Shown one piece after another: positions 3,624 to 24,162 of a stretch of 33,494 bases of DNA. The stretch covers positions 1 to 33,494 of the forward strand of contig JBGPAV010000001.1 in the NCBI GenBank assembly GCA_041480925.1, given 5' to 3'. The translations under genes were made by a program, and so were the position numbers. The notes below the pieces were generated by a model. It saw only the letters and a program-made list of their open reading frames with translations. It made no database searches and had not been told where the DNA came from. Origin of the DNA: Candidatus Bathyarchaeia archaeon. GTDB lineage: Archaea; Thermoproteota; Bathyarchaeia; Bathyarchaeales; Bathycorpusculaceae. Positions within the stretch are counted from its first letter, which is position 1, and each line of letters starts with the position of its first letter.

Positions 3624-4775
3624 ATGAGTGTCGCTCTATCACATTTGTCTCTGAACTTTCTAGGCGGAGAAGAGAAACTTTGTTTGTCATTCATCGAAGC
3701 TCTGCACTCAAGTGGCTATCAAGTCGCACTGCATACAGTTGAAAAGACTGATTGGGCCTCTGTGAGAAGATTCTTCGGCAAAATAACAAAACCTGACCGT
3801 GAGGTCTACGCCACATCTTCAGCAGTTCATGCGAGCTTTTTCAAAACTCCAAATCTGATTATGGCCTACGCCCGTTATCTCGGGAGATTGGTTAAACTTG
3901 CATCTGAAGAGAAATATGATGTAATCATAAACACTTATGGAGATTTGATTAACTCCATTGCTGATGTATCATATGTCCATTTTCCCATAATAGCTACTGT
4001 TGATTATCCTCAGACTCCAGCTTTCACGTCGCCGTTTAAATGGAAGGCGTACTGCAGAATATATAGTATAGCAGCGACATTCTTGGATAGCGTCAGACCT
4101 AGCTTTCTTCTAACGAATTCAAAGTTTACTCAGCAAGTGATAAGCAAGTATTTGAAACGGGAGGCACTTGTCCTGCACCCACCAGTTGATGTGCAAGCCT
4201 ATGCAAGCAACAAAGTCAAGCGTGAAAACCTTGTTATAACGGTCTCGAAATTCACTCCGAAGAGAATGTTGCACAGAATTCCATTGATAGCTATGAATAC
4301 TAAGAACGCGAAATTCATGATTGTTGGCGTAGCAGACGAATACTCATCTAAAACAATTCAAGACCTTAATGGACTAATAGAAAAATGCAAGGTCAAGGAC
4401 AAGGTTACACTCTACCCTAACGTTCCGCGTTCAACATTGATCAAATTGCTAACGACTGCGAAAGTGTATTTGCATGTAATGACCTCGGATCACTTCGGCA
4501 TATCAATCATTGAAGCTATGGCTGCTGGATGCGCACCAATCGTACATAAGTCTGGAGGACCATGGCTTGACATTCTCGATCAACAACAGGGGAAAACAGG
4601 TTTCTCCTATTCGACAGTCGAAGAAGCTGCCAGGCTCATAGACATCATTATGTCTGACGAAAGTCTATGGCGAAAACTATCTTTCACCTCACGCAAGCGA
4701 TCAGAAGACTATAGTGATCAAGAGTTTCAAAAAAAGTTAAATGTTATTGTGAGAAAACTATCTTCTTCACATTAG
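3624..4775 (+). CDS. GT4 (group 1) glycosyltransferase
   Basis: The N-terminus SLNFLGGEEK and the C-terminal FGISIIEAMAAGCAPIV..SGGP (E-x7-E region) are GT4 hallmarks. Confidence 0.8.
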   Translation: MSVALSHLSLNFLGGEEKLCLSFIEALHSSGYQVALHTVEKTDWASVRRFFGKITKPDREVYATSSAVHASFFKTPNLIMAYARYLGRLVKLASEEKYDVIINTYGDLINSIADVSYVHFPIIATVDYPQTPAFTSPFKWKAYCRIYSIAATFLDSVRPSFLLTNSKFTQQVISKYLKREALVLHPPVDVQAYASNKVKRENLVITVSKFTPKRMLHRIPLIAMNTKNAKFMIVGVADEYSSKTIQDLNGLIEKCKVKDKVTLYPNVPRSTLIKLLTTAKVYLHVMTSDHFGISIIEAMAAGCAPIVHKSGGPWLDILDQQQGKTGFSYSTVEEAARLIDIIMSDESLWRKLSFTSRKRSEDYSDQEFQKKLNVIVRKLSSSH

Positions 4776-5537: not shown

Positions 5538-6341
5538 TTGTGTCTCTTGCAGAATGGAGATTGGAGTCTGAAAAGGGTGTTGATTGAAGATACCCCGCAA
5601 ATATCAGTAGTCGTTCCCACGTTAAATGAGGAGAAACACATTCGATTTCTGTTGAAATCTATTGAAGACCAGTTTCCGGTGATTAGTGAAATCGTGATTG
5701 TTGACGGCGGAAGCAAAGATAAAACAACAGATATCGTATGTCAACCTGCAGCAAGAATCATTGTACTGCCTGGACATGGGGAATTCATTTCCCGGAATAT
5801 TGGCGCGAAAATGGCGAAAGGCGACTTGCTGCTTTTCACATGCGCCGACATAATCTTTCCAACTGATCTATTTCAAAAGGTAATCGATAAGTTCGAGAAC
5901 AATCCAAGCCTTATCGCGCTAACTGGTCCAGGATATCCGTTTGATGCTCCCACATTCGGCAAAATAGAGTATACCGTCTACAACCTTCTCAGGTATCTTT
6001 TTGCCAAACTTCCTGGTCGCCTCAAGAGATTTTCAACTAGCACAAATTTCCTTGTTGTGCGGAGAGACTACTTTGAGAAGGCCGGAGGCTTCATCACAGA
6101 TGACATTAACGCTGACGGTCTGATGGGCAAAAAGCTTCTGGAATTAGGCAATGTCGCTTTCTTCTTGGATACACCCATCTACCTATCCGCCAGACGCATG
6201 AAAAAGATGGGCTTCCTAGAGTTCAACAAGCATTATCTCTATGTTCTTGAGAACTTTCTTTTCTTCTCCTCTGAAACCGGACTAGTAAAAGCCGTAAAAC
6301 ACAAATCGAAGAGTAAACATCGCAAGATGCGTGAGAAGTAA
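5538..6341 (+). CDS. GT2 glycosyltransferase
   Basis: ISVVVPTLNEEKHI and VDGGSKDKT motifs. The start is uncertain: TTG 5538, or a GTG about 13 codons downstream. Confidence 0.75.
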   Translation: MCLLQNGDWSLKRVLIEDTPQISVVVPTLNEEKHIRFLLKSIEDQFPVISEIVIVDGGSKDKTTDIVCQPAARIIVLPGHGEFISRNIGAKMAKGDLLLFTCADIIFPTDLFQKVIDKFENNPSLIALTGPGYPFDAPTFGKIEYTVYNLLRYLFAKLPGRLKRFSTSTNFLVVRRDYFEKAGGFITDDINADGLMGKKLLELGNVAFFLDTPIYLSARRMKKMGFLEFNKHYLYVLENFLFFSSETGLVKAVKHKSKSKHRKMREK

Positions 6342-16365: not shown

Positions 16366-17628
16366 TTATGGCCACAGCCCTAGCGTTATTATGGCGTCAG
16401 CTACTCTTCCAACGCCCAGCATCAGTGCCGCTGTTCTCGTGTCGCATTCTTCTTTCTTGGATACCTTGTAGACATCATTGAAGGCTCTGACCATCTTGCT
16501 TTCCAGTTTTCGGTTTACCTCTTGCGCTGTCCAGTGTTCTCGTGTCAGGTTTTGAACCCACTCGAAGTAGCTTGTCGTGACTCCGCCTGCGTTGGCTAGA
16601 ATGTCTGGTATGAGAACTGTGCCCTTTTCGTGGAGGATTTTGTCTGCTTCTGGTGTGGTTGGTCCATTTGCGCCTTCTGCGACTATCTTTGCCTTGATCT
16701 TATCTGCATTGGCCTTGGTGATTTGGTTTTCCAATGCTGCAGGAATAAGAATGTCACATTTTGTTTCGAGCACGTCTTCATTTGTGATGTGTTCGCATCC
16801 TTTTTCACACTTTTTGTAATCAACCACAGAGCCTGTTTTGGATTTGTGTTCTTGTACATCGTAGGGGTTCAGGCCTTTTGAGTTGTACATTCCGCCCATT
16901 GAATCGCTTACTGCCACGATCTTGGCTCCCATGTCGTGTGCTATTTTGGCTGCGTTCATGCCTACGTTTCCGTATCCCTGGACCGCCACTGTTGCTCCCT
17001 TAAGCTTTAAATTCAAATGCTTGGCTGCTTCTCTCGCGCAAACCACGACGCCTAGCGAGGTCGCTTGCTCCCTCCCTTCTGAACCGCCGATACTGATGGG
17101 TTTTCCAGTAACGCATTCTGGAACACTGTAGCCAGTTATTTGGCTGTAAGTGTCCATTATCCAGGCCATTGTCTGAGCGTCCGTGTACACGTCAGGTGCC
17201 GGCACATCGCGGTGTGGTCCGATGAAGTCGTAGAGAAGGCTCGTATATCGTCGTGTCAGTCTTTCAAGTTCGCCTTTTGACATTTGCTTCGGATTACAGG
17301 TGATTCCGCCTTTTGCACCTCCGTACGGAATGTCCACGACTGCACATTTCCACGTCATCCACATTGACAGCGCTGTGACTTCGTCCAGTGTGACATTTGG
17401 ATGGTAACGTATTCCTCCTTTGTACGGTCCTCTTGCATCCCAATGCTGCACTCGACATCCAGTGAAAACATCAGTCTTCCCGTTGTCCATTTTTACCGCG
17501 ACAGAAACGATAAGTGACCTCTTAGGATGAGCCAGCAATTCATGCATGCTGGGGTCAAGTCCCAGTTTTTTAGAAGCAATTTTTAGCTGTTCCAAAGCGA
17601 CTGTTAAGGCTGTATGTTCTTTTCCCAT
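16366..17628 (-). CDS. gdhA: Glutamate dehydrogenase (about 420 aa, hexameric class)
   Basis: KGGIRYHP, GGAKGG (catalytic Lys region) and VAVQGYGNVG dinucleotide fold. I prefer ATG 17628, which has AGGAGG 6-7 nt upstream, over the track's 17646. Confidence 0.95.
   Translation of the reverse strand: MGKEHTALTVALEQLKIASKKLGLDPSMHELLAHPKRSLIVSVAVKMDNGKTDVFTGCRVQHWDARGPYKGGIRYHPNVTLDEVTALSMWMTWKCAVVDIPYGGAKGGITCNPKQMSKGELERLTRRYTSLLYDFIGPHRDVPAPDVYTDAQTMAWIMDTYSQITGYSVPECVTGKPISIGGSEGREQATSLGVVVCAREAAKHLNLKLKGATVAVQGYGNVGMNAAKIAHDMGAKIVAVSDSMGGMYNSKGLNPYDVQEHKSKTGSVVDYKKCEKGCEHITNEDVLETKCDILIPAALENQITKANADKIKAKIVAEGANGPTTPEADKILHEKGTVLIPDILANAGGVTTSYFEWVQNLTREHWTAQEVNRKLESKMVRAFNDVYKVSKKEECDTRTAALMLGVGRVADAIITLGLWP
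16642..16716. repeat. 75-nt tract nearly identical (74/75, inverted) to 21741-21815 in the paralogous gdh
   Basis: My hand reverse-complement alignment found a single C/T mismatch. The tract encodes KANADKIKAKIVAEGANGPTTPEAD in both genes. Confidence 0.9.
17153..17220. repeat. 68-nt tract nearly identical (67/68, inverted) to 21249-21316 in the paralogous gdh
   Basis: My hand reverse-complement alignment found a single G/A mismatch. The tract encodes GPHRDVPAPDVYTDAQTMAWIMD in both genes. Confidence 0.9.
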
Positions 17629-17718: not shown

Positions 17719-19326
17719 TTAGTCAAGTATTCTCTCGATGGCATCCTTTTCTACTTCGTCTGCCATCGGTATACCCGTGACTCTTGCTGCGGTTTCATTC
17801 AAGCTCATCAAATCATTTCTGCTGATGAGGTCCAGCTTCCATCTTCTGCTACCTGCTAGCAGCTGTTTTAGGCCAACACCTATGCGATCCGTCAGGTACG
17901 TGTGGACTGCTATGGCTTCCCATGGTATTTCTTTGAAGCGTTCGCCGTACTTTGCTTTCAGCTCTGGAGTAGCAATGAAGAACTTTTCAGGTGTAGAGCC
18001 AAATCTGTCAGCGAAAGTTTTAGGCAATTTGCCTTCTTCAGCCAATTGCTTGAAGTAGCTTCCCTTGAATGCTGCTGTTATCGGTGAGCGTCCCATCAGG
18101 ACTGCCTTGACAAAAGGTCCGTTGCCAAAGTTGCTCAGCGCGATGGACTTGTAGATTTGGGTTTCGTTGATGAAGCCTCCAGCCATGATTAGGTCAGGAA
18201 CGTATCTGCCCTTCTTCTTTAGCAGTTGTGCACATCTTAGAACTATGGCTTGCAGATAGACTGTTGGAATGCTCATTTCGTCCATCATTGGCACTGGGCT
18301 CATGCCTGTTCCGCCTCCTGCTCCGTCGAAGTATACTGCGTCGATTTTCGCTTCTGACGCCATCTTCATTGTGTACGCACAGGCTACGGGTCTGTATGCG
18401 CCAGTTTTGAGCGTTACATGCTTTGCGCCTTGTTTTCTCAGCCATTCTATGTCTTCTACGAAGCTTTTCTGCTTCGGTATGCCTACCCTGCTGTGCCTTT
18501 CGAAGGTTTTGAAGACTCCTTCTTTGAAGGCTTGCTGTATTACCGGGTCTTCTGGATCTGGAATCACTATGTAGCCTCTTTTCTTCAGCATAATAGCTTT
18601 CTCAAGGTCTCTTACTCGGACTTCGCCGCCTATGGCCTTTGCGCCTTGTCCCCACTTTCTTTCTATGACATTCACTTCCAGTTTCGAGATTGCGTAGACG
18701 TCAACTCCTAGCCTTTGGTCTTCGACGTTTGTTTGCACGGCTATTTCTCCGTATTTTCCGTCCCAGAACTTTCGGAATAAGTCTACTCTTCGCTTCAGTT
18801 CTTTCGAGTAGGTGACTTTGCCATTTGTTATCTGTGCTTCTGGATCCATGCCGCAGACGTTTTCGCCAACTATCACTGATACTCCTGAGAGAGCTGAGCC
18901 TATGGCTAGGCCTTCCCAGTTTAGTCTTGCGACGTCGGTTGAGCCGAAGGCACCGCATAGTACTGGCACTTTTAAAGGTACGCCTCCGACTTTGGTTTCT
19001 GTGCTTGCATTCGGGAAGGTGGCTACGTCAGAATTCTCCTCTATGCCTAGAACCTCGAATAGGCCTGCTTGAATGTTGAAGTGGGACCAGTCTAGTCCAA
19101 AGTCTTTGAGGGCTCCTGCTGTGCTGTAGCCAAATTGGGCTGGTTCTGGGTAGAGGGCTTCTCTTCCTCTGAAGGCAGATAGGCTGATTTCGCATAGGAC
19201 CGGACAGTCTCGGATGCATATGGGGCACATTCCGCTCGTTGGGCTTGTGTCTTTTACTCTTGTTGTTGTTCCACAAGTTGATTTTCCGTTCAAATAGGCA
19301 CTGTTTCTATGTACACGTTCACTCAT
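17719..19326 (-). CDS. Glutamate synthase FMN-binding-domain protein (GltB domain 2-like, stand-alone) with an N-terminal Cys cluster
   Basis: DGAGGGTGMSP (FMN-domain signature), TIM-barrel-like length, and an N-terminal CPICIRDCPVLC (CxxCxxxCxxxC). GGAGAGG lies upstream of the ATG. Confidence 0.8.
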   Translation of the reverse strand: MSERVHRNSAYLNGKSTCGTTTRVKDTSPTSGMCPICIRDCPVLCEISLSAFRGREALYPEPAQFGYSTAGALKDFGLDWSHFNIQAGLFEVLGIEENSDVATFPNASTETKVGGVPLKVPVLCGAFGSTDVARLNWEGLAIGSALSGVSVIVGENVCGMDPEAQITNGKVTYSKELKRRVDLFRKFWDGKYGEIAVQTNVEDQRLGVDVYAISKLEVNVIERKWGQGAKAIGGEVRVRDLEKAIMLKKRGYIVIPDPEDPVIQQAFKEGVFKTFERHSRVGIPKQKSFVEDIEWLRKQGAKHVTLKTGAYRPVACAYTMKMASEAKIDAVYFDGAGGGTGMSPVPMMDEMSIPTVYLQAIVLRCAQLLKKKGRYVPDLIMAGGFINETQIYKSIALSNFGNGPFVKAVLMGRSPITAAFKGSYFKQLAEEGKLPKTFADRFGSTPEKFFIATPELKAKYGERFKEIPWEAIAVHTYLTDRIGVGLKQLLAGSRRWKLDLISRNDLMSLNETAARVTGIPMADEVEKDAIERILD

Positions 19327-19413: not shown

Positions 19414-19433
19414 ATGAACATGTATGAACATGG
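19414..19433. promoter_or_regulatory. Tandem 10-nt repeat ATGAACATGT/ATGAACATGG (two TGAACAT heptads), upstream of the GltS-like gene
   Basis: It lies 88-107 nt upstream of ATG 19326 (minus strand), distal to an AATATTTAAAT TATA-like box at about 19383-19394. It shares the 12-mer ATGTATGAACAT with 20295-20306. Confidence 0.5.
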
Positions 19434-19448
19434 AAACTCTCGCAATCA

Positions 19449-20198
19449 TCAGTCTATTAGAATCCTGATCTTGGAGCCTTTCACAGTGTATTCGTGACGC
19501 TGGAAAGTTTTCGAGTCATAACGCCAGCCAGCCTCTTTGACTTCAATAAATCTCTTAGCTCCTTCTTTGGACAATTCGATAACTACCTGTGTGATATGTT
19601 CGATAAGAGCGCAGAACTCTTTAGGGTGGGCATTCTTTGCGAGCGTCCAACTGGCCAACGTGTTATAGGCATACAGTGCAGGGCAAACGTGAGCGAAGAA
19701 TCCTTTAACCGTCTCGCGTCCCCAAACCTGCTCCATCAATGACAAGCTGTTGAAAACAAGCCTCGTACCTGATGTTACGAATTCCCTTTCAACTCTTCCG
19801 AAGAATCTATGGAATTGTTCAGGGTCTTTTGAGCTCGGGACTTTTCTAATCCAAGATGGTGCCTTATCGTAGAAGTCACTGAATATAAGTTCACCTTGGC
19901 CAGAGGATTCAGAGAAACAGTCCAAAACAAGAAGCTTGCTTTCCCATCCTGATGGAAAAGTCTCGATCAAAGGTTTCAGCTGCAACATCAGGGCCTGTGG
20001 AGGATATAAGAAATCAAGATATATAACTTGGCTTCCTTCAACTATGCCTTGTTTGATGAAAGCATAAATGAATTCACACGCAAGTGTTCCAGACTCAATT
20101 TCCCATAAAACGTTTTCACCCAAGAAAAGGCCGCCGCCGAGAAGCTCATCCAACGTCTCTATTCCTGTTGACAGCATTTGATTTCCTTGTTTATTCAC
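19449..20198 (-). CDS. KaiC/RecA-fold protein lacking a Walker A P-loop (probable pseudo-ATPase)
   Basis: STGIETLDELLGGGL..G matches the KaiC/RadA-like N-terminus. The position of GxxGxGKT reads IESGTLAC. LLVLD (Walker B-like) is retained. Confidence 0.6.
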   Translation of the reverse strand: MNKQGNQMLSTGIETLDELLGGGLFLGENVLWEIESGTLACEFIYAFIKQGIVEGSQVIYLDFLYPPQALMLQLKPLIETFPSGWESKLLVLDCFSESSGQGELIFSDFYDKAPSWIRKVPSSKDPEQFHRFFGRVEREFVTSGTRLVFNSLSLMEQVWGRETVKGFFAHVCPALYAYNTLASWTLAKNAHPKEFCALIEHITQVVIELSKEGAKRFIEVKEAGWRYDSKTFQRHEYTVKGSKIRILID

Positions 20199-20260
20199 CT
20201 TGGGTCTCCGTCTTTTGAATGATATCTAGGCGATAAAAACGTTTAGGTGTGTCGAGGGCT

Positions 20261-20306
20261 GTTCAATGGTGTACATAATGTACATAACGTTTCTATGTAT
20301 GAACAT
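20261..20306. promoter_or_regulatory. Composite element GTTCAA-n3-TGTACAT-n2-TGTACAT-n14-TGAACAT in the divergent KaiC-like/gdh2 intergenic region
   Basis: It has the same architecture and the same 9-nt heptad phasing as 22151-22186. The outer GTTCA...TGAAC arms are inverted. Confidence 0.55.
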
Positions 20307-20345: not shown

Positions 20346-22133
20346 ATGCTAACTTCAGTAGAGTTGTCAGGAAGAGAACTTGGAATGATAAAACTGATGG
20401 CTGACTTTTTCGTTGAAAAACCCGAGTTAACCGCAAAAATCGAGAGCTACACAACAGCCTACTATGCCCTCATGACTACATATTCAGAGAACTTTGGAAT
20501 TCCGACAGAAGATGCATGGAAGACGTTCGAGGAGCTTGAAAAGAAACTCGATGGGGCAAAAGACATACGTGTCGAGGCGCCGTCACCTATCAAGAAATGG
20601 TACTCGTTGTCTACGGAAGAAATAAACATGATCCGCGTGCTGATTGACTACTTCTCAGAGAATCCCAAAATGACTCCCACAAGCTCGTTCATTGCCAACA
20701 GGTCAGAATCTATCATCGAAGCCTACAAATGGTTTTTCGGAACAACTGAAGGTAATGGCGAATACGCAAGGGAAAGCTTCAACAACCTAATGGAAAAGAT
20801 ACAAGCTGCAACATCAATCAAACTCGACACATTAGCTCCAGTCATGGCCACGCCAAACCCTTACGAAGCTGTCCTGCAGCTTCTGCAGCTCGCCGCAAAG
20901 AAGCTGAACCTAGACCCAGGATTGCATGAAATGCTGAAGCGCCCAATGAGAACTCTCATCGTCAACATCCCAATAACGATGGACGATGGAAGCATACAAG
21001 TCTTCACTGGCTACCGTGTACAATACAATGACTTGCTAGGTCCAACGAAGGGCGGCATAAGATATCACCCAGAACTGACGCTGGACGAAGTCATAGCTTT
21101 GTCCGCTTGGATGACCTTCAAGACTGCGGTAACAGGTCTGCCTCTTGGAGGCGGCAAGGGCGGAATACGCTGCAATCCGAAAGAGATGTCTCAAAATGAG
21201 CTAGAAAGACTGACCAGAGGCTATGCCCGTGCTATGGTGCGCTTCATAGGACCACACCGCGATGTGCCGGCACCTGACGTGTACACAGACGCTCAGACAA
21301 TGGCCTGGATAATGGATGAATACAGCGAAATGGTAGGATACAATGTTTTCGGAGTAGTCACTGGAAAACCAGTGCATGTCGGCGGTTCACTGGGCAGGAA
21401 TGAGGCAACGTCCAGAGGCGTGATGTACACTGTTATCGAGGCTGCAGAGCATCTCGGCATAAAGCTGAAAGGTTCTACAGTGGCAGTGCAGGGCTACGGC
21501 AACGTTGGATACCATGCTGCTCGGCTGCTCAATGAAATCGGATGCAAGATCATAGCAGTCTCAGATTCAAAAGGCGGAATCTACAATCCGAAAGGATTTG
21601 ATCCAATGAAAGCCTTAGAACACAAGAACCGAACTGGCTCTGTCGTTGACTTTGAAGACTGCAAGAACATAACGAATGAAGAACTGCTAGAAGTGGAATG
21701 CGACATTCTCGTTCCATCTGCTCTAGAGAGCCAAATCATCAAGGCCAATGCAGATAAGATCAAGGCAAAGATAGTTGCAGAAGGCGCAAATGGACCAACC
21801 ACACCAGAAGCAGACGAAATACTGTTCAAAAATGGAATCTTCGTCATCCCAGATATCCTAGCAAACTCTGGCGGTGTGATTGTCAGCTACTTCGAGCAGG
21901 TGCAGAACCAGATGAACTACTACTGGCCCGAAGACGAAGTGCGGGAGAAACTGAAAAACACGATAACCAAAGCATTCAAGGATGTTCTGGCAATATCTCA
22001 GCAGTACAACGTGAACATGCGTGTGGCTGCCTACATGAGCGCAGTCAAGAGAGTCACTGATGCCATGCTTACTCGCAAGCACAAAACAGTCAGCCCAATC
22101 CCCGAACCAAAGGCAACAGTTCAAAGCAAATGA
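20346..22133 (+). CDS. Glutamate dehydrogenase paralog with a 166-aa N-terminal extension (two tandem RHH-like repeats)
   Basis: The GDH core carries KGGIRYHP, GGGKGG and VAVQGYGNVG. The frame is continuous from ATG 20346 (GGAGG at 20331-20335). An in-frame ATG at 20844 sits at the start of the GDH core. Confidence 0.9.
   Translation: MLTSVELSGRELGMIKLMADFFVEKPELTAKIESYTTAYYALMTTYSENFGIPTEDAWKTFEELEKKLDGAKDIRVEAPSPIKKWYSLSTEEINMIRVLIDYFSENPKMTPTSSFIANRSESIIEAYKWFFGTTEGNGEYARESFNNLMEKIQAATSIKLDTLAPVMATPNPYEAVLQLLQLAAKKLNLDPGLHEMLKRPMRTLIVNIPITMDDGSIQVFTGYRVQYNDLLGPTKGGIRYHPELTLDEVIALSAWMTFKTAVTGLPLGGGKGGIRCNPKEMSQNELERLTRGYARAMVRFIGPHRDVPAPDVYTDAQTMAWIMDEYSEMVGYNVFGVVTGKPVHVGGSLGRNEATSRGVMYTVIEAAEHLGIKLKGSTVAVQGYGNVGYHAARLLNEIGCKIIAVSDSKGGIYNPKGFDPMKALEHKNRTGSVVDFEDCKNITNEELLEVECDILVPSALESQIIKANADKIKAKIVAEGANGPTTPEADEILFKNGIFVIPDILANSGGVIVSYFEQVQNQMNYYWPEDEVREKLKNTITKAFKDVLAISQQYNVNMRVAAYMSAVKRVTDAMLTRKHKTVSPIPEPKATVQSK
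21249..21316. repeat. Partner of 17153-17220 (67/68 identity, inverted)
   Basis: Same evidence as for 17153-17220. Confidence 0.9.
21741..21815. repeat. Partner of 16642-16716 (74/75 identity, inverted)
   Basis: Same evidence as for 16642-16716. Confidence 0.9.
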
Positions 22134-22139
22134 CTTCCC

Positions 22140-22145
22140 TTTTTT
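22140..22145 (+). terminator. T6 tract 7 nt after the gdh2 stop, a candidate terminator
   Basis: TGA 22131-22133 is followed by CTTCCCTTTTTTC. This places the next gene under its own promoter. Confidence 0.4.
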
Positions 22146-22150
22146 CTATT

Positions 22151-22186
22151 GTTCAACGTGTACATTGTGTACATGTCTGTGAACAT
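22151..22186. promoter_or_regulatory. Composite element GTTCAA-n3-TGTACAT-n2-TGTACAT-n5-TGAACAT upstream of the RHH-protein gene
   Basis: The heptads start at 22159, 22168 and 22180. The second TGTACAT ends 54 nt before ATG 22228, compared with 61 nt for the gdh2 copy. Confidence 0.55.
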
Positions 22187-22227
22187 GTTTAAGAGACACC
22201 ATTTTAACAGACTGTCTAGGGAAAAGA

Positions 22228-24162
22228 ATGTCTGTTCATCTCCATACTACTCTGAGAAAGAAAACAGATGACATGATTGAGGAATTGGCGAAGACTTACG
22301 GAACCAAGAGCCGAGTCATTGAACAAGCAATCGAGACGCTACTCAGAGTTGAAAGAGTCGGCTCCTGCGAGGACTGCGCAATAAAAGCAAAGATGAATGA
22401 ACAAGTGAACCTAAGAGAAGCTCTGGACTTAACGTCAATTGGAAGGAAAATGGCTGACAGTCTTCTGGAAGTGGCGGTCGGAGACAAGACAGTTCAGGAT
22501 TTTATTGCCGAGGAAAGGACGGAGGCAAAGAACACTATTGAGGTTCTAAAAGGTTCAATGGCGTGGAAAGCCCCCTCCAACTTCAAAGAGTTCATGACGA
22601 TTTTCGAAGAATTGATGAGTCTGACTCGGCTTTTCGAAATCGCTTCTCACAGTGAGATGGAAAACACGATAATCCTGAGACCGCGCGTCTTCAAACGCCT
22701 GCCTGAGCTTGTTGCCTTTCAATTGGCGGTCATACTTGAAGGTCTGCAGATATCTTTCGACATAAGAATAATGGGAGAAGATGTCGCTATCAAGTTAACA
22801 AGACAAGAACTCTACGCCATGAGGAAGAAGGAGTTTGGCGAAATATTCAATGAACAAATCGAGAGAAGACTTTCTGATTCTACCCCGGGGCTTTTCAGGG
22901 ATACTTTGATCCTGGTCGGACCGGCCTTCATGAACTGGGCCGAAAAACATCTTGAGGAACCTATAACCGATCTAAGCTCGTTCATAGAAGATGTGAAAAC
23001 CGTTCTTGGCAAGGACGAGCTTCCATCCCAGCCTAGAGAATTTGTGAAAAGCCTGTTATCTGCGTTTATAAAAATGAACTGGTTTAAGCAAGCAAAGATA
23101 CTGCAAGAAGTTGATGAGAAGACTCTGGATTTGTCTTTTCAAGCAACTATGCCTTCAGTCGCCAAACTTGCGATTCTAGTGTTGTCAGTCATATTTGCGA
23201 CCCGTGGTTGGAAAGTTGTGAAATTCTCCGCTGAACACACGTCAGTCAATCTTACGATCCAATTCGTCGGTTTGGAAGATCAAAGCTTGCTTGATCAGGT
23301 GGTTGAGCTTAGCCTCTATCAAACCGTAGGCAAGCAATTCCTAGACGTTATGCCAGTTCCAAGAGAAGTTTTCAACTCTTTTGCTTCCAAAGTCTACGAA
23401 ACTGATAAGGAGAGATTCTCTGAAATATACCGAAATATGGGCGTTGGGGTTGCCAGTGCCGTCCGCCTACTTGCAAGAAATGACCCGGGGAAAATCAAAA
23501 AGTTGTCTCAAACACTTATCCTCAAGAACCTAGGGTCTATGCAGCCTGATGCGGAGATCCGGTTTGTCGATGATGAACATTTTACCATAATTTTCAAGAA
23601 AATCGACTTTCTGGTTGTCAATAGCCAACGTACTTTCATCGAATCTCTGTTCAAAGAACTTGGATACGAAATCTCGACGACGGTTTTCCAGAACCTATTG
23701 AGCTTCAAGCTCAAACCATTGGAGAAACCGATTCTTGAACCTGTGCCCACAAAGAAGATAATGCAGAGCCTGATAGGCGAGATGTCTGCAAATTCCTGTG
23801 ATGAAGCTTTTGAATTGATAAAAGAGCAGCTTGATCAAATGTTTCCAGAAGATTATCCATGGACCTTAAAAGAGGTTGGCGATAGGCTCATCGAGATATA
23901 CCGCGAAATAGGGATAGAAGTTGAAATCGAGTATTTCGAAGGAGGCTTCACACTCAAGTACAGGACATGTCCGTACTACAAATTGGTTAAATCTGGACAG
24001 AAGACGTGGCTTTGTAATCTTCGCAAGAAGACGATAGATTACATCCTTTTGCGAGTTTCACATGGAAAGAAGGCAAAGATAAAGATCATCAAGTCCTTGC
24101 TCAAGAATGAACATCCTTGCGAATATGCCGTGTTCTTAACAGGGTTCTTGGAAGAGGAATAG
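22228..24162 (+). CDS. 644-aa protein of unknown function: N-terminal ribbon-helix-helix DNA-binding domain plus four V4R-like modules (the last is Cys-containing)
   Basis: VHLHTTLRKKTDDMIEELAKTYGTKSRVIEQAIETLL fits the beta-alpha-alpha RHH pattern (CopG/Arc-like). The C-terminal TCPYY..WLCN..HPCEY resembles V4R-type ligand-binding domains. The family assignment is tentative. Confidence 0.5.
   Translation: MSVHLHTTLRKKTDDMIEELAKTYGTKSRVIEQAIETLLRVERVGSCEDCAIKAKMNEQVNLREALDLTSIGRKMADSLLEVAVGDKTVQDFIAEERTEAKNTIEVLKGSMAWKAPSNFKEFMTIFEELMSLTRLFEIASHSEMENTIILRPRVFKRLPELVAFQLAVILEGLQISFDIRIMGEDVAIKLTRQELYAMRKKEFGEIFNEQIERRLSDSTPGLFRDTLILVGPAFMNWAEKHLEEPITDLSSFIEDVKTVLGKDELPSQPREFVKSLLSAFIKMNWFKQAKILQEVDEKTLDLSFQATMPSVAKLAILVLSVIFATRGWKVVKFSAEHTSVNLTIQFVGLEDQSLLDQVVELSLYQTVGKQFLDVMPVPREVFNSFASKVYETDKERFSEIYRNMGVGVASAVRLLARNDPGKIKKLSQTLILKNLGSMQPDAEIRFVDDEHFTIIFKKIDFLVVNSQRTFIESLFKELGYEISTTVFQNLLSFKLKPLEKPILEPVPTKKIMQSLIGEMSANSCDEAFELIKEQLDQMFPEDYPWTLKEVGDRLIEIYREIGIEVEIEYFEGGFTLKYRTCPYYKLVKSGQKTWLCNLRKKTIDYILLRVSHGKKAKIKIIKSLLKNEHPCEYAVFLTGFLEEE

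Follow-up and report, generated by a model that had tools for sequence, protein, structure and literature searches.

Few Bathyarchaeia and Asgard archaea have been cultured, and for this reason almost nothing is known of how they regulate transcription and sense nitrogen. We analyzed a 33,494-nucleotide stretch of DNA from a Candidatus Bathyarchaeia archaeon (assembly GCA_041480925.1, contig JBGPAV010000001.1, positions 1 to 33,494; referred to here as the window) and, within it, a gene for a 644-residue protein situated between nitrogen genes and replication genes. Its neighbors in the window encode a 426-residue glutamate dehydrogenase (GDH), a glutamate-synthase-like protein, a KaiC/PAXNEB-like ATPase, a 595-residue N-extended GDH, the small and large RFC subunits, MCM, and GINS. 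The open reading frame lies exactly where a preliminary description of this DNA had placed it.

22228 to 24162, + strand: 644-residue open reading frame with an ATG start (open reading frame list), candidate ribbon-helix-helix (RHH) one-component regulator

The open reading frame is a real gene under strong constraint. A word-indexed search with the 644-residue protein returned 479 relatives at E ≤ 1e-3. Among the matches listed (120 of the 479), nearly all are 644 residues long, with a few between 629 and 648; they are 72–97% identical to the query, their source names point to Bathyarchaeia, and none of the 120 carries a precomputed Pfam domain. A scan of one genome per species gave 75 loci, 66 of which yield full-length orthologs with identities down to 46%. 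Bathyarchaeia orthologs are 54–97% identical to the window protein, and those from Promethearchaeota, Hermodarchaeota, and Thorarchaeota 46–51%. An exhaustive search of 1.84 billion representatives with a hidden Markov model produced just 42 matches. Single-sequence searches of Pfam, NCBIfam, and the PDB with the whole protein found no match, about 80% of the family's length is without a Pfam or NCBIfam model, and no description of the family was found in the literature searched. We most likely deal with an undescribed regulator family common to Bathyarchaeia and Asgard archaea.

Distant full-length relatives of 490–534 residues are colinear with residues ~1–495 of the 644-residue protein, and some distant relatives align solely over its first ~190–300 residues. 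Because the 490–534-residue relatives stop at ~495, the last ~150 residues represent an add-on of the 644-residue subfamily. A 519-residue subfamily occurs in Helarchaeota and Promethearchaeota, and another of ~520–534 residues in Hodarchaeales bears a C-terminal receiver (REC) domain (Response_reg, best E = 5e-23). The second, 493-residue gene in locus L012 was considered as a paralog and rejected. Three relatives (P0053, P0079, and P0107) are called as 629-residue proteins that start at Met16, which would remove an N-terminal H-x-H-T-T strand; since residues 1–15 are conserved, the 644-residue start is right and the Met16 start is wrong. One Bathyarchaeia ortholog (locus L073, ~4049–4054) has an in-frame stop in helix A of the candidate RHH domain (…DDMRDQ*TKNYG…), representing a pseudogene or an assembly error.

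The preliminary description had proposed an RHH at the N-terminus, and this assignment finds moderate support in profile matches that are in register and in an invariant strand and Gly turn, but reaches no Pfam threshold.

22234 to 22353, + strand: candidate RHH DNA-binding domain, residues 3–42 (model helices, invariant residues, hhalign matches to CopG and NikR, weak ParD and RHH_3 matches)
22366 to 22377, + strand: C47-x2-C50 motif directly after the candidate RHH domain, invariant in 66/66 orthologs

The candidate domain comprises a short strand, VHLHTTL (residues 3–9), helix A (residues 11–24), a turn at Gly25 (G25-T-K-S28), and helix B (residues 27–39). It thus presents the sequence features by which an RHH is recognized: an alternating short strand, a first helix, a Gly turn, and a second helix starting with Ser, Thr, or Asn. 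His4, His6, Thr7, Thr8, Gly25, and Glu32 are invariant among the orthologs of all 66 species, and position 28 is Ser or Asn in every one of them. Each subfamily keeps a short alternating strand (VHLHTTL, HVHVVTD, or SRIQTVIT), a helix, an invariant Gly with Thr or Ser, and a second helix. The CxxC motif that follows is also found in the 519- and 493-residue subfamilies and is missing from most REC-fused relatives; the monomer model has a low predicted local distance difference test score (pLDDT) in this region.

We compared the family profile by hhalign with references fixed a priori, six RHH proteins (two of which matched) and four non-RHH controls; the CopG and NikR reference sequences were confirmed in the PDB. 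The profile aligns with CopG at a probability of 67% (E = 5e-5, 40 columns) and with NikR at 39% (36 columns), in both cases with the strand included and the register correct, and the four controls stay at or below 6%. Among PDB sequences, the best RHH match is a weak one to ParD (7b22, E = 0.12). An RHH domain is the best reading of the N-terminus, and one that we consider quite likely.

The gene's own promoter was said in the preliminary description to carry a TGWACAT element, with the protein as the prime candidate for reading arrays of this motif. The boxes are indeed present, beginning at 22159, 22168, and 22180, and similar groups precede two other genes.

22150 to 22195, + strand: own promoter, with TGTTCA (22150–22155), TGTACAT (22159–22165), TGTACAT (22168–22174), and TGAACAT (22180–22186), the boxes abutting a TATA-like TTTAAGAG (22188–22195), from the sequence
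20262 to 20306, + strand: promoter of the N-extended GDH, with TGTTCA (20262–20267), TGTACAT (20270–20276 and 20279–20285), a TATA-like TTTCTATGTA (20291–20300), and TGAACAT (20300–20306), from the sequence
19415 to 19431, + strand: TGAACAT-N3-TGAACAT pair before the glutamate-synthase-like gene of a glutamate-synthase-like/GDH operon (boxes at 19415 and 19425), kept in loci L001, L003, and L005

The window contains 25 matches to TGWACAT where 9.1 ± 3.1 are expected, and none of 100 shuffles attains 25; clusters of the motif are confined to the three intergenic regions before the regulator, extended GDH, and glutamate-synthase-like genes. We then counted all 7-mers, without a preset motif, over 66 own promoters and 57 orthologous extended-GDH promoters against background pieces. 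The top two 7-mers in both sets are TGTACAT and TGAACAT, present in 86% and 70% of the own promoters (background 4.7% and 6.4%) and in 96% and 98% of the extended-GDH promoters (background 10.8% and 14.6%), percentages that come from phylogenetically related samples. All 66 own promoters hold at least one box and 47 hold two or three; the extended-GDH promoter boxes are likewise found in Asgard archaea and in the rearranged locus L008. The boxes stand in tandem at a spacing of 9–12 bp and flank or abut the TATA-like element in the own and GDH promoters. In the own promoters of the Asgard orthologs (46–51% identity), they take the form ATGTACA-ac-ATTAATAAA-N4-TGTACAT and bracket the TATA-like element, and the Asgard GDH promoter has three tandem boxes ~10 bp apart and one more beyond a TATA-like TTTGAATAG.

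Two further elements were observed in this part of the window. A second conserved element, TAAAAACGTTTAGGT, lies at 20234–20248 in the intergenic region between the divergent KaiC-like and GDH genes, with hardly any variation among L001, L003, L005, and L008, and could represent the TATA element and TFB-recognition element (BRE) of the KaiC/PAXNEB-like gene on the minus strand. Within the coding region of the 426-residue GDH, on the strand opposite the gene, TGTACAT occurs twice at a distance of 31 bp (16853–16890), perhaps by chance or as an internal site.

The motif also follows the family into contexts without GDH. For this comparison, we used distant relatives that have an xLHTT strand but unrelated neighbors, with neither a GDH nor a KaiC-like gene. 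Upstream of P0154, whose strand reads VHLHTTIA, the first 60 bp contain three boxes of the form ATGAACAT/ATGTTCA, where 0.11 would be expected (P = 2e-4 for a motif fixed a priori). For P0126, ATGTGCATA is present twice in the own promoter, and an inverted pair precedes the following gene (5 copies; expectation 0.41). The P0134 locus is independent and differs in base composition; its promoter has ATGTGCATA twice, the second copy abutting a TATA-like element. As a single central base distinguishes ATGTGCAT from the palindromic ATGTACAT, the common form of the box is ATG-N2-CAT. Subfamilies with another strand (HVHVVTD or RIQTVIT) show no box enrichment. Since the family gene is the sole element common to these loci, the 644-residue protein is the most likely reader of the boxes, which implies autoregulation and, together with the top rank of the motif in both promoter sets (57–66 species), bears out the earlier designation as prime candidate. 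The same inference was drawn for MsvR from a conserved motif before all msvR genes (PMC3729527).

Loci of distant relatives have further features. In L010, the inverted pair ATGCACAT...ATGTGCAT (6135–6161) precedes a gene for an FAD/Fe-S oxidoreductase downstream of the 493-residue P0126; from its sequence, this pair is probably a second operator, which points to another regulon in the lineage concerned. The promoters of the Helarchaeota 519-residue paralogs (L006, 7930–7975; L007, 7920–7960) share a common block, TTGATCAAAAAATGTTT, and TTGAACA half-sites. A divergent gene of 202–218 residues, 41% identical between L006 and L007 and without a Pfam family, is conserved there; it proved not to be related to the KaiC/PAXNEB-like gene.

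We therefore propose, with a probability of roughly 70%, that the 644-residue protein is an autoregulated RHH one-component regulator of glutamate metabolism, which would act on its own gene and on the N-extended GDH gene through ATGTACAT-like boxes. The proposal is built on sequence evidence: a candidate RHH domain is joined in one chain to a MetOD1-like domain (described below), and boxes linked to the family, and presumed to be bound by it, stand in its own and neighboring promoters. Because the boxes flank or abut TATA-like elements, we propose that the regulator probably represses. The architecture is atypical for a one-component regulator, as had been suggested; the accompanying size range of about 45–150 residues for RHH regulators is only a rule of thumb at its upper end, PutA being a large RHH fusion protein.

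Several observations count against the proposal. Compared by hhalign, the family profile shows no signal for Arc, Mnt, MetJ, or ParD(RK2) (all <2%), and no Pfam or NCBIfam RHH model is significant, the best being ParD at 0.049–0.076 and RHH_3 at 0.089. The monomer model leaves residues 1–9 (pLDDT 35) and 38–71 disordered; for residues 1–9, disorder is expected because the RHH strand forms only in a dimer. Relatedness among the promoter samples makes the percentages above overstate their independence, the TGTGCAT variant was defined after L010 had been seen (L012 serves as the independent replicate), and the Helarchaeota 519-residue and REC-fused relatives show no box enrichment. Finally, the best PDB sequence match of residues 17–46 is the helix-hairpin-helix (HhH) region of the Thermus NAD-dependent DNA ligase, which scores above any RHH (profile E = 0.0064; hhalign 93%, 29 columns) and covers two helices only.

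This last match raises the alternative that the protein binds DNA through an HhH-like element, in a non-specific or structure-specific manner, and not through an RHH. We regard this as quite improbable: the ligase was chosen post hoc, being the top scorer among 177,635 sequences, the two aligned helices lack the G-h-G hairpin continuation, in place of which the family has SCxxC, and the invariant H-x-H-T-T segment would be left unexplained. Sequence-specific boxes that co-occur with the family also favor specific recognition. Profile searches of the PDB with alignments A1 and A6 gave weak HhH and spurious matches only, and a PHROGs scan of the N-terminus found nothing significant.

The preliminary description divided the rest of the protein into four V4R-like modules with a similar strand-helix rhythm. 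A first AlphaFold model from a shallow alignment was unusable (pLDDT 46.6), and its fold search was set aside as meaningless. A better one (model 2), based on the deeper alignment A6 of 44 sequences, has a mean pLDDT of 69.4, mostly 70–89 in the structured blocks. It makes the four-module rhythm visible as four predicted units, each consisting of helices followed by a hairpin-helix-hairpin (ββ-α-ββ).

22492 to 22797, + strand: module 1, residues 89–190 (model 2 secondary structure, pLDDT mostly 70–89)
22921 to 23265, + strand: module 2, residues 232–346, same topology, with invariant G327-W328-K329 (model 2)
23362 to 23718, + strand: module 3, residues 379–497, same topology (model 2)
23749 to 24159, + strand: module 4, residues 508–644 (fold unit 508–636), divergent MetOD1-like with Cys3His (PF18546 matches, Cys/His invariance)

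The predicted topology of all four modules agrees with the TRAPPC3/V4R-type fold, whose connectivity is four helices and a four-stranded sheet and which is related to the PoxR V4R and to H-NOX (PMC10933270); V4R and Bet3 are reciprocal best structural neighbors (PMC2253512). In a Foldseek search of the PDB with model 2, nothing reached E ≤ 1e-3. The best biological match was H-NOX (E ~0.02, probability 0.99–1.0, TM-score (TMt) 0.40; the matching module is not indicated), and Bet3 (2j3w_E) matched at E = 0.074 (probability 0.99, TMt 0.46). The modules share a predicted topology, and hhalign gives values below 3% for every pair of them; for this reason, a fourfold repeat is structural only and is not demonstrable by sequence. 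Scanned singly against Pfam, modules 1–3 gave scattered noise and no recurrent family, and all modules stayed below 1% by hhalign against the human TRAPPC3 (Bet3) sequence.

From its sequence, module 4 is a divergent MetOD1-like domain of the HNOB/V4R/ATC-hydrolase group. Taken alone, it matches PF18546 (MetOD1) in 23 of 24 diverse orthologs, with a best E of 1.8e-5. The window protein scores 16.8 bits against a cutoff of 23.8 (E = 0.0073; residues 517–633, profile positions 23–139 of 142), one full-length ortholog reaches 22.1 bits against the same cutoff (E = 1.8e-4), and module 4 of two orthologs touches ATC_hydrolase. MetOD1 is related to HNOB, V4R, and ATC hydrolase and shares with V4R a cluster of three conserved Cys (Galperin et al., PMC5847659). 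Cys581 and Cys596 are invariant in 66/66 orthologs, and His629, Cys631, and Glu632 are present in 65/66, so the Cys/His motif noted earlier in the last module is real and invariant or nearly so; its spacing had been misread, TCPYY-x17-C being in fact TCPYY-x11-C (TCPYYKLVKSGQKTWLC). Spaced as C581-x14-C596-x32-H629-x-C631, these residues constitute a candidate Cys3His metal site; His612 and Cys524 are not conserved among the orthologs. Module 4 is the most conserved module of the 644-residue subfamily (23 of 137 positions invariant) and is absent from the 490–530-residue relatives.

The V4R label as such did not hold for the sequence. PF02830 has no match at E ≤ 10 in the whole protein, in 10 diverse relatives, in module 4 alone, or in modules 1–3 alone; the Cys spacing of module 4 differs from the V4R type; and modules 1–3, which have no conserved Cys, resemble V4R in topology only. 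What stands of the earlier claim is that module 4 belongs, at scores below the cutoff, to the same wider group. A module-4 profile found only a short, non-credible DnaA match among PDB sequences. MetOD1 has been defined as the output of REC response regulators in methanogens, whereas the 644-residue protein has no REC domain and its hosts are Bathyarchaeia and Asgard archaea.

On the upstream side, the regulator gene belongs to a conserved trio with the N-extended GDH and KaiC/PAXNEB-like genes.

20346 to 22133, + strand: N-extended GDH gene (595 residues, ~195-residue N-terminal extension; Pfam ELFV_dehydrog at residues 200–576), probable target gene
19449 to 20198, − strand: KaiC/PAXNEB-like ATPase gene (Pfam), divergent from the GDH gene, third member of the trio
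17719 to 19326, − strand: glutamate-synthase-like gene

The preliminary description had named phyletic distribution and gene neighborhood as checks. The 66 orthologs occur in Bathyarchaeia and Asgard archaea, the N-extended GDH gene lies directly upstream in 57/57 loci, and the KaiC/PAXNEB-like gene lies upstream on the opposite strand in 53/53. Since the trio persists in the rearranged locus L008, where the other neighbors differ, and in all Asgard orthologs, we take it as the conserved unit. A link to the replication genes (RFC, MCM, and GINS) was considered and dropped, their adjacency being incidental: RFC follows the regulator gene in just 33/57 loci, and L008 is without all of them. In one lineage (L001/L002, 10646–12209), an insertion of four small genes separates the regulator gene from RFC; they encode a protein with a MarR/AsnC-type helix-turn-helix (HTH), a stand-alone AsnC_trans_reg, a DUF2061 protein, and one protein without assignment. 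A T-rich run (CTTCCCTTTTTTCTAT) follows the GDH stop at 22134–22149 and is consistent with an archaeal oligo-T terminator; if it terminates transcription, the regulator gene forms its own transcription unit.

A homologous extension is present on the GDH of all 57 orthologous loci, Asgard archaea included. In the window (20346–20930), it consists of an internal tandem duplication of ~80 residues (BLASTP between the halves: E = 4e-9, 27% identity). The preliminary description called it RHH-like, a suggestion we had to drop together with that of homology to the 644-residue protein: the extension matches no Pfam family, and hhalign against the 644-residue protein gives 0.2%.

The conserved trio would also fit a protein complex. 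The boxes might be read by another transcription factor, and the 644-residue protein, itself no more than a co-regulated target, might act on proteins; for instance, it could serve the N-extended GDH and the KaiC-like ATPase as a scaffold or regulatory subunit, and its N-terminus would be a helical segment for interaction. Bet3/V4R/H-NOX-type folds do bind ligands or proteins and not DNA, and the failure of every RHH model to reach its curated threshold would be explained. The boxes, however, recur before distant family genes that lack a GDH or KaiC-like neighbor, where the family gene is the only common factor. In addition, no part of the protein is more invariant than the strand presumed to contact DNA, and the CopG and NikR matches, strand included, are in register. 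We consider a co-regulated target unlikely.

Gene neighborhood also bears on whether the protein is the RHH antitoxin of a toxin-antitoxin module. JGI names one ortholog, P0108, "antitoxin component of RelBE/YafQ-DinJ", in line with the weak ParD-type matches, but no inspected locus has an adjacent toxin gene, the neighbors being GDH and RFC or other genes. A 644-residue chain with four extra domains, encoded by a single conserved chromosomal gene in fixed synteny across two phyla, is likewise out of keeping with an antitoxin, and the neighborhood effectively refutes this reading.

Among the distant relatives, three Hodarchaeales proteins have a fused REC domain (best E = 5e-23), and one of them lies in a che cluster. 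P0126 and P0134 are divergent from stand-alone REC genes, and a HisKA/HATPase_c kinase adjoins P0126. The Hodarchaeales protein P0145 (L009, 6001–7593) contains an N-terminal RHH-like part, a "GWG" segment, and a REC domain, with CheW, CheY, CheB, CheC, CheD, CheR, a PAS histidine kinase, and REC-Arf-type GTPases encoded nearby. It may correspond to the "Arc-type RHH-HisKA-REC" proteins of Lokiarchaeum (Galperin et al. 2018).

If the 644-residue protein is the autoregulated RHH regulator proposed here, its RHH domain would dimerize and insert an H-x-H-T-T β-ribbon into the major groove of the (A)TG(T/A)ACAT boxes. Several dimers would bind cooperatively side by side and occlude TBP/TFB, thereby repressing the regulator's own gene and glutamate-metabolism genes. 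The remaining ~600 residues, comprising the three α/β modules and the MetOD1-like Cys3His domain, may serve in oligomerization and signal input, and the C-terminal modules could respond to a small ligand, a metal, or the redox state. In distant relatives, the input may instead come from the REC domains that we observe fused or encoded adjacent to them. The outcome is a testable regulator-operator pair, kept across two phyla, that consists of the protein, a 7–8-bp box, and its target promoters (N-extended GDH and glutamate-synthase-like).

A broader proposal, possible but rather doubtful, is a three-protein switch for glutamate or nitrogen status, made up of the regulator together with the N-extended GDH and the KaiC/PAXNEB-like ATPase, that Bathyarchaeia and Asgard archaea would have inherited, or passed between them, as one unit. 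By analogy, the duplicated GDH extension may dock on an orphan α/β module so that the enzyme's catalytic state controls DNA binding, a form of trigger-enzyme control. Metal or redox input may be added by the MetOD1-like Cys3His domain and the CxxC motif, and the RHH-plus-module chassis may be an unrecognized DNA-binding output of two-component systems in Hodarchaeales and other archaea. REC-fused and REC-paired relatives do suggest a new class of DNA-binding output for archaeal two-component systems, and the MetOD1-like module 4 takes the MetOD1 domain beyond methanogens and REC fusions.

Several known systems resemble the 644-residue protein in part. The CopG/omega/MetJ-type repressors share its strand-helix-helix layout, CopG being its best a-priori match. 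Their operators are arrays of short repeats, partly palindromic and spaced by about one helical turn, to which they bind cooperatively. These repressors, however, are 45–105 residues long and have no co-repressor sites or only small-molecule ones, whereas the 644-residue protein has four further domains and a CxxC motif. NikR (PDB 1q5v) likewise joins an RHH to a sensor domain that binds metal through Cys and His, and represses from promoter sites. It differs in its length of 133 residues, its ACT-like domain, and its binding as a tetramer to an operator of two half-sites; in the 644-residue protein, the RHH is followed by ~600 residues of other folds and the boxes are tandem 7–8-mers. MsvR (PMC3729527) also regulates its own promoter and has a conserved DNA motif before every family member. 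Its ~250 residues comprise a helix-turn-helix and one V4R (PF02830) with C206/C232/C240, and its targets concern oxidative stress, in contrast to the candidate RHH, three extra modules, MetOD1-like C-x14-C-x32-H-x-C, and probable GDH target found here.

The REC-MetOD1 response regulators of methanogens (PF18546; PMC5847659) are matched by module 4 over nearly the full profile; the conserved Cys cluster is one that the V4R/ATC-hydrolase group has as well, and the link of the family to REC domains is a further likeness. In the 644-residue protein, the MetOD1-like module scores below the cutoff and is joined to an RHH and three modules in place of a REC domain. With the V4R domains of XylR, DmpR, PoxR, and MopR and with TRAPPC3/Bet3, the modules share, in their predicted topology, a two-layer arrangement of approximately four helices and a four-stranded sheet; V4R/Bet3 ligand cavities are often stabilized by Cys-ligated Zn, with varying ligand positions (PMC2253512, PMC10933270). 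The differences here are the lack of a PF02830 match, TM-scores of 0.40–0.46, and another Cys spacing. Bacillus subtilis RocG-GltC provides the closest circuit for comparison in that it, too, unites in one circuit a GDH, the gene for a glutamate synthase, and their dedicated transcription factor. There, the GDH acts as a trigger enzyme on GltC, which is a LysR-type activator, whereas the 644-residue protein is of another type and shares no sequence similarity with the GDH extension. One-component regulators with an RHH (NikR) are thus already known, as are archaeal ones in which a V4R is joined to a DNA-binding domain (MsvR); what is new here is an undescribed combination of domains together with a well-defined, testable operator.

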